A DNA stretch of 64,000 nt, taken from the NCBI GenBank assembly GCA_964016885.1, contig OZ024749.1, positions 44,826,001 through 44,890,000 of the forward strand, written 5' to 3'. Positions 7,635 to 64,000 of this stretch are shown piece by piece; positions within the stretch are counted from its first letter, which is position 1, and each line of letters opens with the position of its first letter. The position numbers and the translations under genes are program-made. The notes beneath the pieces are model-generated. The model was not told where the DNA came from and ran no database searches. It saw nothing but the letters and a program-made list of their open reading frames with translations. The DNA comes from Eledone cirrhosa. Its lineage: Eukaryota.

Positions 7635-7791
7635 CAAAGTTGGTGTGGTAAGATACCAGGTGGACCATAAAGCACCAGAGTACTCAATACTTAGGATAGT
7701 AGAGTAGTATGAAAAGAGTCAGGACCCTGACGGCTGTCGGATCTAGCTGTTGAAACGGCCGGAGCTCAGCCATCGGGGTCCTGATTCTTTC

Positions 7792-7792
<1 letters not shown>
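7635..7792 (-). mobile_element. PLE-like fold-back cassette, family A2 (degenerate)
   Basis: Homologous to 31429-31643 and 63505-63670; inverted arm contains GAAACGGCCGGAGCTCAGCCATCGGGGTCC; next to (TA)n. Confidence 0.7.
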
Positions 7793-8484: not shown

Positions 8485-8555
8485 GAGGGTGGACTATAAC
8501 GCACCAGGGTACTCAATACTTAGGGTAGTAGATTTGGTATCTAACTCTTTTTCTA
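8481..8555 (-). mobile_element. Family A extension fragment
   Basis: GGACTATAACGCACCAGGGTACTCAATACTTAGGGTAGTAGA matches the family A long arm; lies between (TA)n tracts. Confidence 0.65.
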
Positions 8556-11820: not shown

Positions 11821-12206
11821 TGAAATATGTATTATATGAATCTTCCTTGTGGTGTGTATGCTTTGTAAGTTAACTTAATCTTATTTACAAATATAGTAGT
11901 TACTAATGTCTTCTATGTCAGCATATATATACTGTATATATCTTATATATATACTGTATATATATTATATATATATATACCACCTAATTTTCTACGACGA
12001 GATGCAATATGTTGTGTAATATATTGGTTTACTTTCCACTGCGAGGGTAGATTTATGTCCATTGTAATAAGTTATACTTTTTTAATTCACATTATCCTAT
12101 TATCCCGTGTCATCGTCTAACTTTACATTTCGTGATGAATGACTAATGTCCGACATTTTCAGACATTCCTTTTCTGACATATATATATATATATATATAT
12201 AAATAT

Positions 12207-12300
<94 letters not shown>

Positions 12301-12303
<3 letters not shown>

Positions 12304-12513
12304 CGAAGGATATGTGGTAAGGAACCAGATGGACCATAACGCACCAAAGTACTCAATACTTAGGGTAGTAGAGTGGGTAATAGGAACGAGTAGGACCCCG
12401 ACAGCTGAGCTCAAGCCGTTTCGACGGCTAATTCTGGACTAAAATGTCCAGAATTTTAGTCCAGAATTAGCCGTCGAAACGGCTTGAGCTCAGCCGTCGG
12501 GGTCCTACTCGTT

Positions 12514-12518
<5 letters not shown>
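12301..12518 (-). mobile_element. PLE-like fold-back cassette, family A1
   Basis: ~80-bp unique extension plus palindrome ~12380-12518; the right arm reads GAAACGGCTTGAGCTCAGCCGTCGGGGTCC and the left arm is its reverse complement with one substitution; (TA)n on both sides. Confidence 0.8.
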
Positions 12519-12566
<48 letters not shown>

Positions 12567-17279: not shown

Positions 17280-17340
17280 TTATATTTTGTCTGATGAGGA
17301 CGTACTGTTGTACCTCTGAAATATGTATAATAAAATGTAA
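17280..17340 (+). ncRNA. Minimal type I hammerhead ribozyme (family E)
   Basis: Stem I TTATATTTTGT/ATAAAATGTAA (11 bp, 2 GU); CTGATGA 17291-17297; stem II GGACGTAC-TGTT-GTACCTCT; GAAA 17318-17321; short stem III ATATGTAT; AUA triplet. Confidence 0.7.
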
Positions 17341-20346: not shown

Positions 20347-20468
20347 AAGTGAGTAATATTGTAGAACAATAAAACTATGCATATATCAGATAAGTAGCAC
20401 TCAACAGTTAGTAGAACTGGAGTATATATAATAAAGAGGAATTAAAATATGGTTAAAAGAGTTCCATA

Positions 20469-20538
20469 TATTTTATTATGCGCATTTCGAATACCAAATC
20501 ATCCTGGGACAAAAATTGTGTTCTCATCAGATAGAATA
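20469..20538 (-). ncRNA. Minimal type I hammerhead ribozyme (family B)
   Basis: Minus strand reads TATTCTAT-CTGATGA-GAACACAA...TTTGGTATTC-GAAA-TGCGCA-TA-ATAAAATA; core intact, stem III palindromic. Confidence 0.8.
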
Positions 20539-20637
20539 AGGTAACCTGATAAGAGGCATAATAGCACTTGTTTACAGGAATGTAGACTGGACACTTTCCT
20601 GTAAACAAGTGCTATTATGCCTCTTATCATGTTACCT

Positions 20638-20707
20638 TATTTTATCTGATGAGAACACAATTTCTGTCCCAGGATGATTTTGTATTCGAAATGAGCATAA
20701 TAAAATA
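20638..20707 (+). ncRNA. Minimal type I hammerhead ribozyme (family B)
   Basis: TATTTTAT-CTGATGA(20646-20652)-GAACACAA...TTGTATTC-GAAA(20688-20691)-TGAGCA-TA-ATAAAATA; perfect 8-bp stem I. Confidence 0.8.
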
Positions 20708-20762
20708 TATGGAACTCTTTTAACCATCTTTCAATTCCTCTTTATATATATATATGTATATA

Positions 20763-23492: not shown

Positions 23493-23497
<5 letters not shown>

Positions 23498-23704
23498 AAC
23501 GAGTAGGACCCCGACGGCTGAGCGCAAGCCATTTCGACGACTAATTCTGGACCATGTGTGTCCAGTATGTCCAGAATTAGCCGTCGAAACGGCTTGAGCT
23601 CAGCCGTCGGGGTCCTACTCGTTCCTATTACCCACTCTACTACCCTAAGTATTGAGTAATTTGGTGCGTTATGGTCCATCTGGTTCCTTACCACATTTCC
23701 TTCG

Positions 23705-23707
<3 letters not shown>
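23493..23707 (+). mobile_element. PLE-like fold-back cassette, family A1
   Basis: Palindrome 23493-23628 with ~16-nt spacer, then extension to CCTTCGTT and (TA)n. Confidence 0.8.
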
Positions 23708-31191: not shown

Positions 31192-31196
<5 letters not shown>

Positions 31197-31399
31197 AACG
31201 AGTAGGACCCCGACGGCTGAGCTCAAGCCGTTTCGACGGCTAATTCTGGACTAAAGACTTTAGTCCAGAATTAGCCGTCGAAACGGCTTGAGCTCAGCCG
31301 TCGGGGTCCTACTCGTTCCTATTACCCACTCTACTACCCTAAGTATTGAGTACTTTGGTGCGTTATGGTCCACTTGGTTCCTTACCACATTTCCTTCGT

Positions 31400-31400
<1 letters not shown>
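31192..31400 (+). mobile_element. PLE-like fold-back cassette, family A1, perfect palindrome
   Basis: 65-bp arms 31192-31256 and 31258-31322 with a 1-nt centre; extension to 31400; (TA)n flanks. Confidence 0.85.
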
Positions 31401-31428
<28 letters not shown>

Positions 31429-31431
<3 letters not shown>

Positions 31432-31643
31432 GGAAAAGAGTTAGAGCCCCGACGGCAGAGCTCCGGCCGTTTCGACAGCTAGATCTGAACTCAGCTAGAT
31501 CCGAAAAGATCTAGCCTTCGAAACGGCCGGAGCTCAGCCGTCGTAGTCCTGACACTTTTCCTATTACCCACTCTACTACCCTAAGTATCGAGTACTCTGG
31601 GGCGTTATGGTCCACCTGGTTCCTTACCGCACTTCCTTCGTTT
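31429..31643 (+). mobile_element. PLE-like fold-back cassette, family A2
   Basis: Imperfect palindrome 31429-31564 with GAAACGGCCGGAGCTCAGCCGTC; same extension as A1. Confidence 0.8.
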
Positions 31644-49807: not shown

Positions 49808-49810
<3 letters not shown>

Positions 49811-50002
49811 CGAAGGAAATGTGGTAAGGAACCAGGTGGACCATAACGCACCAAAGTACTCAATACTTGAGGTAGTAGAGTGGGTAATAGGAACCAGTAA
49901 GACCCCGACAGCTGAGCTCAAGCCGTTTCGACGGCTAATTCTGGCTAGTCCAGAATTAGCCGTCGAAACGGCTTGAGCTCAGCGGTCGGGGTCTTACTGG
50001 TT

Positions 50003-50007
<5 letters not shown>
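49808..50007 (-). mobile_element. PLE-like fold-back cassette, family A1
   Basis: Extension 49808-49886 plus palindrome 49887-50007; (TA)n flanks. Confidence 0.8.
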
Positions 50008-52760: not shown

Positions 52761-52825
52761 TGGAGATTCAGGACTCCGACGGTTGAACTCCTCTCGTTTC
52801 GACAGCTAGACAGCTAGATCCGAAT
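52761..52825 (-). mobile_element. Family A2 fragment
   Basis: CAGGACTCCGACGGTTGAACTCC...CGTTTCGACAGCTAGA...GATCCGAA between short TA runs. Confidence 0.6.
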
Positions 52826-63504: not shown

Positions 63505-63670
63505 AAGGAAAAGTGTCAGTACCGACAGTTGAGCTCCGGCCGTTTGGCGAAACGGTCGGAGCTCACCCGTCGCGGTCCTGACTCTTTTCCTATTACCCAC
63601 TTTACTACCCTAAGTATTTAGTATTTGGTGCGTTATGGTCCATCTTGTTCCTTACCACACTTCCTTCGTT
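63505..63670 (+). mobile_element. PLE-like fold-back cassette, family A2
   Basis: Imperfect palindrome centred just before GAAACGGTCGGAGCTCACCCGTC; extension to CCTTCGTT-(TA)n. Confidence 0.75.
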
Positions 63671-64000
63671 ATATATATATATATCCAGAAACAATCTAGC
63701 AATGACAACAATAACAAAAGAAAATCATTATACCTTTATTAAGTACCATCATTACTGAGAAAATTGAAAAAACAACAATACCAAAACGAGAAACAAACGC
63801 AAGAAAATAAATTCGTTAAACAAACAGAGGCCTCAAACAAATATAAACATATATATTTTTTTTTAATACGTAAAATCTATTTCTGTTAAAATTTGTTTAG
63901 TTACCATGGTGATAAACTATTTTAGATTAAATTCAAAGGACTACTTAGTTTTTAGATATTTTATCCTATTTTATTATTATTTCTTTTAATGAAGAAAATT

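Follow-up and report, generated by a model that had tools for sequence, protein, structure and literature searches.

Penelope-like elements (PLEs) of the Hydra clade are defined by a DKT motif, a CxCx5C linker, CxxC and CxH around the E and N residues, (TA)n targets and the lack of CCHH (PMC8557442). Members such as Hydra-1_Obim of Octopus bimaculoides encode a reverse transcriptase (RT) followed by a C-terminal endonuclease, carry a hammerhead ribozyme near the 3' end and are laid out as an inverted 5'-truncated copy with a tail (PMC8557442). The element described here, from Eledone cirrhosa, is alike in all of these respects, and its protein matches the printed Hydra-1_Obim protein motif by motif when compared by eye; element type and inverted-plus-tail layout are thus already known. 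It differs in its size (3.58 kb, compared with mostly under 3 kb), in its tail (79 nt, compared with 30-40 nt), in having RWR where the clade has RWK, and in its ribozyme, which has a YUGANAA core, a long stem II and a 7-bp stem III, whereas all 26 Hydra families with a listed hammerhead have a CUGANGA core and short stems (PMC8557442). The size and core that it departs from are typical traits of the clade, not strict ones.

Other PLEs share parts of this biology. PAc/Poseidon of Anolis resembles the present element in having two RT start sites that bound the tail at the pLTR-ORF junction, an AT-rich target and a mostly uncleaved template, but belongs to a different clade, its ORF starts inside the ribozyme and no RNA reads were reported to end at the cut site; in vitro, both strands were cut and extended, and the two RT start sites bound the tail (PMC11167929). 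The available part of that account leaves 5' limits, inverted joining and template jumps untreated. The Cercyon PLEs of Schistosoma likewise have a U3-A8 covariation in a hammerhead core within the pLTR and nearby opposite-strand motifs, but their motifs are minimal and thought to need dimers, whereas stem III is full and stem I extended here; a circular template has been proposed for tandems (PMC4209133). Penelope palindromes of Adineta also have head-to-head pLTRs, an optional tail and an Inr-like motif in the pLTR; they were attributed to self-priming, possibly on an antisense template, and, being of low copy number, yielded no 5'-end statistics (PMC3846280). Both the way in which PLEs form inverted ends and the in vivo role of their hammerheads have been named as open questions (PMC8557442, PMC11167929). 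Our literature search, with subscription papers and bioRxiv supplements outside its scope, returned no description of a start site in a PLE hammerhead or of run-off joining; within that literature, what is likely new here is a putative transcription start within the ribozyme, signatures of run-off and jumping that point to two cDNAs rather than snap-back, and candidate genomic traces of cleavage.

The window, by which we mean the whole stretch of 64,000 nt that was analysed (contig OZ024749.1, positions 44,826,001 to 44,890,000), contains seven hairpin copies of one family, all lying between (TA)n runs, and two fragments. A preliminary description, made from the letters alone, had named the seven copies, and all were found where it placed them; the hairpin repeats are confirmed as described there, and their interpretation was partly supported. 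Element positions are numbered from the hammerhead cut site, at which the C is 0 and the base after it is +1.

12178..12300: (TA)n target, left flank of the 12301 copy
12301..12445, minus strand: tail-bearing arm, element -44 to +99, its 5'-end U-run longer by one T, by alignment to the long copy L123
12301..12379, minus strand: the 79-nt tail, +21 to +99, between the two 3' ends
12393..12422, minus strand: hammerhead 3' half of the tail arm (GAAA, stem III, GUC, stem I 3' strand)
12446..12452: junction insert of 7 nt, a short duplicate of element sequence beside the join, placed by sequence and by the loop of the predicted fold
12453..12518, plus strand: tail-less inverted arm, element -44 to +20, ending in TTCCTA, the base of stem I
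12476..12505, plus strand: hammerhead 3' half of the tail-less arm
12519..12564: (TA)n target, right flank of the 12301 copy
7635..7792, minus strand: older copy, tail arm from near -5, tail-less arm to about -30 or beyond
23493..23707, plus strand: copy with both arms from -39
31192..31401, plus strand: copy with both arms from -43
31429..31642, plus strand: adjoining copy of an older subfamily, sharing a TA run with the 31192 copy
49808..50007, minus strand: copy with arm starts at -37 and -41
63505..63671, plus strand: older copy with arm starts at -23 and about -21
8488..8539, minus strand: tail fragment of the same family as the 12301 copy
52767..52808, minus strand: diverged lone arm of that family

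The copy at 12301-12518 forms a near-perfect hairpin (RNA fold of -144.7 kcal/mol, z = -20, 0/200 shuffles as good), with GAAA reading from 12476 on the plus strand and from 12422 on the minus strand and the stem I strand from 12499 and 12399. The copies at 7635 and 63505 are diverged and have unequal arms, and at 7635 only the tail-less arm reaches GAAA. Across the 3.0-Gb genome there are 15,802 exact matches to the 30-mer of the half motif and 23,987 exact tail ends (reversed-pattern controls, 0 in each case), and about 90% of copies are shorter than 250 bp. The octopus 'Twin' repeat is a candidate identity for the hairpin repeat.

Although the 64-kb window has no ORF-bearing copy, long copies elsewhere in the genome point to the parent. 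By their motifs, the hairpins are 3' stubs of an autonomous 3.58-kb Penelope-like element of Hydra-clade type inserted in (TA)n. The unit length of 3,578 nt is the spacing of ribozyme cores in L123, where the ORF runs from an ATG at +191 to a frame end near +2364 and encodes, in a single frame, an RT with a YRDD core and then a C-terminal GIY-YIG-type endonuclease (VIY..YIG, with R, H, E and N residues), the arrangement of EN+ Penelope-like elements. A 3' UTR of 1.2 kb follows, with a complete hammerhead at its end. The Hydra-clade traits present are SDKTG, CNCPDGSIC, CNLC and CKH, a single Cys between VIY and YIG in place of CCHH, and (TA)n insertion; aligned relatives show RWR or RWK at the position where this element has RWR. 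The ORF has 168 relatives (best E 6e-125), the sole named one from Argonauta hians (36%); a local Pfam scan of three ORF pieces returned no family, and a PDB search with ORF pieces returned nothing. All five ORF copies read are frameshifted or stopped.

The units are partially tandem (pLTR): L123 has -111 to +99 upstream of its full unit, 11 of 15 ORF-bearing loci extend beyond the upstream cut site, and the 79-nt tail continues into the ORF leader in tandem copies. Two of five near-full-length copies (L122:4201 and L125:3885, set beside the body starts of L123 and L124) begin almost exactly at the ORF start codon. A 47-nt piece of the 3' UTR, probably captured from a SINE, matches a common dispersed repeat that occurs 11 times in the window (6086, 11346, 11772, 15261, 21441, 48802, 48997, 55446, 57114, 58385 and 62893).

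The sense-arm motif of the hairpins had been read as half a hammerhead, and rightly: what it preserves is the 3' half of a true type I hammerhead motif, and the long copies provide what it lacks, namely the stem I 5' strand, the core and the stem II 5' strand, so that stems I, II and III surround the core with an NUH site. Exact 5' halves number 1,839 genome-wide. Among 84 complete motifs sampled, a set biased toward one subfamily, the core reads CUGAGAA in 48, UUGAGAA in 19, UUGAUAA in 7, UUGAAGA in 2 and a single variant in each of 8; position 7 is variable and A8 constant. The U3-A8 pair with a free position 7, a covariation reported for Schistosoma PLEs (PMC4209133), is retained in the 19 UUGAGAA, the 7 UUGAUAA and one UUGAAAA. 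CUGAGAA, commonest in this subfamily-biased sample (48/84), has a C3-A8 mismatch and may be a weak form. CUGANGA had been described as absent from the hairpins, which holds in that no short copy has a 5' core; the long copies lack it equally and have YUGANAA instead. The CTGANGA-bearing master that the preliminary description had proposed to look for was accordingly not found (0/84), and the 21 genome matches with CTGANGA ahead of the half motif were all junction accidents or other elements, yet the identification as a hammerhead stands: the predicted ribozyme of the element is a variant type I hammerhead with a YUGANAA core. Its fold is the MFE structure in one of six subfamilies tested (L189) and lies 0.7 to 5.1 kcal/mol above the MFE in the other five; z-scores of unconstrained folds are unremarkable (-1.05 and -0.47), and Rfam gave no hammerhead match in the window or in three long loci. 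At many loci an 8-nt stretch of the stem II loop flips between reverse-complement forms, even between the arms of one insertion, and appears to be a recurrent micro-inversion hot spot.

We then scored where arms begin, using the first 90 of 100 listed tail-end matches on contig C1; all of our samples are drawn mostly from the start of one contig. An inverted partner arm, counted only when it ended at +17 to +23, was present at 57 of the 90 tail-anchored loci, giving the inverted 5'-truncated copy with tail. The two 3' ends of the family are fixed at +20 and +99, and the partner arms end at the TTCCTA/(TA)n junction (+20), as had been noted for the window, in 46 of 57 cases, the other 11 ending at +17 to +23. 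The 5' starts are concentrated at -46 to -33 (92/147 arms), with only 2 at -47 to -95 and 11 further up. Tail arms (n = 90) start 3' of the cut site in 19 cases, at -22 to 0 in 9, at -32 to -23 in 5, at -46 to -33 in 48, at -47 to -95 in 1 and further up in 8, and 44 of 57 partner arms start at -46 to -33; the earlier observation that turning points cluster in stem II is thus borne out. Alignment overshoot, by 3 to 10 nt, accounts for about 7 of the starts scored at -44. The limit at -44 is sharp and coincides with the 3' edge of the stem II loop. At the joins (n = 57) we found microhomology in 27, inserts in 19 and blunt ends in 11. By hand count, and leaving out arms with A at one upstream place, the U-run is expanded (≥6 T) in 7 of 51 short arms and in 0 of 49 long arms.

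The base at the limit is a candidate transcription start. A(-44) is the +1 of a perfect TCAKTY initiator (6/6), followed by an MTE match of 9/12 at +18 to +29 but by no DPE (3/6) (initiator and MTE consensus from PMC4581360). TCAKTY occurs once more in the unit, and only the site at -44 combines it with a 9/12 MTE; the letters that resemble the MTE coincide in part with the constrained GAAAC of the ribozyme, and for that reason the match may be incidental. These matches suggest that transcription likely starts at A(-44), inside the stem II loop; in Penelope and Chlamys-3, too, the transcription start lies inside the pLTR (PMC8557442). A single copy, L123:3521, has its first base at -111; variant letters of its own create another TCATTT there, which may mark a start further upstream, with the whole ribozyme included.

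A sister family with a canonical core offers a comparison.

20431-20745: sister-family palindrome with a CTGATGA...GAAA core, long stem II and (TA)n targets

This family also has two 3' ends, about 80 nt apart, and its exact halves are nearly balanced genome-wide (3' 724 vs 5' 632). Of 30 arms, 27 pass their own stem II, 6 begin no more than 2 nt from a TCA-type initiator that lies 64 nt upstream of the core and has a DPE match of 5/6 at +28 to +33, and none begins 3 to 26 nt upstream of that initiator. The arm limit would thus follow the initiator and not stem II, with the initiator base having been chosen after the cluster was seen; the starts cluster on ATAT, and part of the clustering could therefore stem from microhomology with the target.

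Whether stem II stops the RT can be read from long copies. The tail-to-leader junction occurs at 60 places in the genome, of which 30 were read. The 15 ORF-bearing copies among them start at +27 to +83 (4) or upstream of -65 (11) and never at -46 to -33, and all 11 long copies that reach the cut site pass through stem II, compared with 13/105 among the sampled arms (Fisher P = 3e-9). Since 0/15 start there and 11/11 pass, stem II is not a stop for the elongating RT. The other 15 junction-bearing copies are short and hold ORF-leader sequence: 7 are direct repeats in which a leader/ORF stretch that runs to a point between +199 and +933 gives way directly to a unit whose first base lies at -33 to -43, 3 have a leader/ORF stretch followed by a unit starting at +1, and 5 end otherwise. 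In these copies cDNA at -33 to -43 or at +1 would have jumped to an inner site of an ORF-bearing RNA, probably the mRNA because the leader/ORF part extends to +933. Jumping at template ends is typical of such RTs, and the short copies appear to jump from -33 to -43 into the ORF leader, as if from an RNA end. One locus, counted as two of the 7 (L247/L248, G000:C1:27009500-27010300), has the leader-then-unit junction three times over, with at least three head-to-tail units of -43 to +214 and an identical junction behind one inverted arm, by repeated jumping or from a small circular template. In L113, a long arm combines the ribozyme 5' half of one subfamily with the 3' half of another, the switch lying between -44 and -3, possibly a jump from a short RNA onto a long RNA.

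From the start positions and jumps, we think it rather probable that head-to-head short copies arise from two run-off cDNAs on an RNA that starts in the stem II loop, primed from the two target ends. An internal polymerase II promoter in the pLTR would start at A(-44), so that half a hammerhead would form the very beginning of the mRNA, whose 5' end would precede the two priming sites by 64 and 143 nt. The element protein would prime on this RNA at +20 and +99 from both ends of the cut (TA)n target, both cDNAs would run off the RNA 5' end, trimmed by up to about 11 nt or stuttering on the U-run, and end joining would then connect them, using microhomology or adding short templated inserts. Hairpins likely carry half a ribozyme because the RNA begins mid-ribozyme and two cDNAs run off that end, which would make the half motif a by-product of promoter position. 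Long copies (about 9%) pass -44 and so need a more-than-unit template, which would be a read-through RNA or a hammerhead-cut, religated circle, with each cDNA stopping at random. Our own prediction that full-length copies would start at -44 of the upstream pLTR failed (0/15), and the two-cDNA account has to assume in addition that priming is confined to a pLTR with the leader behind it. In LINE-1 twin priming, two primers from one target break likewise give an inverted join with microhomology, but the second primer sits at an internal site and the two arms are non-overlapping, whereas here both arms copy the same stretch.

In this scheme the complete 3' hammerhead would cut in vivo at least sometimes. 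In a hand count of 54 distinct places within the first 100 matches listed, two pairs of which are tandem neighbours, +1 is the commonest start (14 clear, 8 ambiguous), with 17 starts at +2 to +5, 13 spread over 0 to -8 and 2 unclear. This second cluster, together with the three jumps from +1 into the leader/ORF among the 15 short leader-bearing copies, suggests that cut RNA is sometimes used as template and that cleavage is real in vivo. Templates had been described as uncleaved at GUC; most were uncut, but a start precisely at the cut site, seen in a minority of copies, makes cleavage of some templates likely.

An alternative with the same two run-off cDNAs, in which the end at -44 is made by a nuclease cutting the AU-rich stem II loop or by a protein footprint that stops a 5' exonuclease, is in our judgement unlikely. 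It accommodates the run-off signs equally well, the taper from -44 to -33 could be RNA nibbling, and the base before A(-44) is G about as often as template C (7 vs 6, hand count), where a transcript start would give a cap-derived G. It does not foresee that a perfect initiator has its A exactly at the limit, nor that the sister-family limit lies outside the ribozyme and again on an initiator-like TCA.

Less probable still is the reading of the preliminary description, that one tail-primed cDNA stalls in stem II, folds back and copies itself to end at +20; on this model, unequal arms would be due to later deletion at the unstable centre. Self-priming has been argued for PLE palindromes (PMC3846280), the junction microhomology (27/57) and inserts (19/57) would suit it, and arm lengths in long pairs are correlated. 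The arms of one insertion also share subfamily letters and rare variants (25 sites in 17 distinct pairs); the rare variants reject random pairing of RNAs from different loci as a rule and place both arms on one RNA or one source locus, which fits both models. Stalling and snap-back are nevertheless not supported, in that stem II stops neither the long cDNAs (11/11) nor the sister family, the limit lies at the loop edge and not at stem entry, and jumps from -33 to -43 lead into the leader. The shorter arm of long inverted pairs also passes -46 in 15 of 15, so both arms share a template class, and of the 11 long pairs that combine a +20-type with a +99 end none is near-symmetric: the tail-less arm is longer in 7 and shorter in 4, by 580 to 3,200 nt, and in L119, L125 and L126 whole ORFs lie on the tail-less arm with a short tail arm. 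Sequence on a tail-less arm that is absent from the tail arm excludes a single fold-back cDNA unless there was a later one-sided deletion. Short copies are skewed weakly in the same direction, the tail-less arm exceeding the other by 10 nt or more in 12 and falling short of it in 4 (P = 0.08) after 4 and 1 rows were dropped as overshoot or inner deletion. Family arms in L033, L037, L039, L041 and L085 abut other hammerhead-bearing repeats with no TA run between; these can be mixed-template insertions or deletions between neighbouring insertions and were left out of the evidence, although L041, where another family's arm is folded back on itself, speaks for snap-back.

Descent as a MITE-like or retrozyme-like non-autonomous family from one or few palindromic founders is very improbable: size is uniform and copy number very high, but 37 of 39 inversion centres are distinct, as the preliminary description had held of copies formed separately, the two repeated centres each occur in different subfamilies, the -44 limit recurs in several subfamilies, the copies grade into ORF-bearing ones, and unequal ends, unique centres and a retroelement parent do not make a MITE, which has fixed terminal inverted repeats derived from a founder and a DNA transposon as parent, nor head-to-head copies with half a ribozyme a non-LTR retrozyme, which consists of non-coding head-to-tail units with a complete hammerhead each (bioRxiv 10.64898/2026.07.22.740005).

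Returning to two cDNAs from a promoter-defined RNA, an extension that we rate as improbable is that division of the ribozyme by the promoter is deliberate: its 5' half, carried at the other end of the mRNA, would pair with the 3' half through stems I and II and cut the cap off at +1, leaving joinable unit-length ends that form a circle. In cofolding, the two halves form a two-strand hammerhead in one subfamily (-29.3 kcal/mol) and do not in two others, and there are copies that begin at +1. If true, the ribozyme would be a switch between a translated capped mRNA, which gives rise to the short hairpin junk, and a circular template for replication, from which the long and tandem copies are made.

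The family amounts to tens of thousands of natural reaction products with 5' ends readable to the base; they record template jumps and argue for two cDNAs off a defined RNA end over fold-back. The run-off account would offer an explanation for the puzzling inverted ends of such elements, and the genome has signs of cleavage at the ribozyme site, where RNA-seq showed none for the lizard element in the available account (PMC11167929). The element also explains a large source of perfect 65-bp hairpins in the genome, which, if transcribed, would likely be substrates for dsRNA editing or silencing. At 17291 in the window, CTGATGA occurs within another inverted repeat, likely a third hammerhead-bearing PLE family, and fragments of other, diverged Hydra-type RT frames adjoin family copies at L122:1641-2762 and L125:1015-1545; the genome contains many Hydra-type families.
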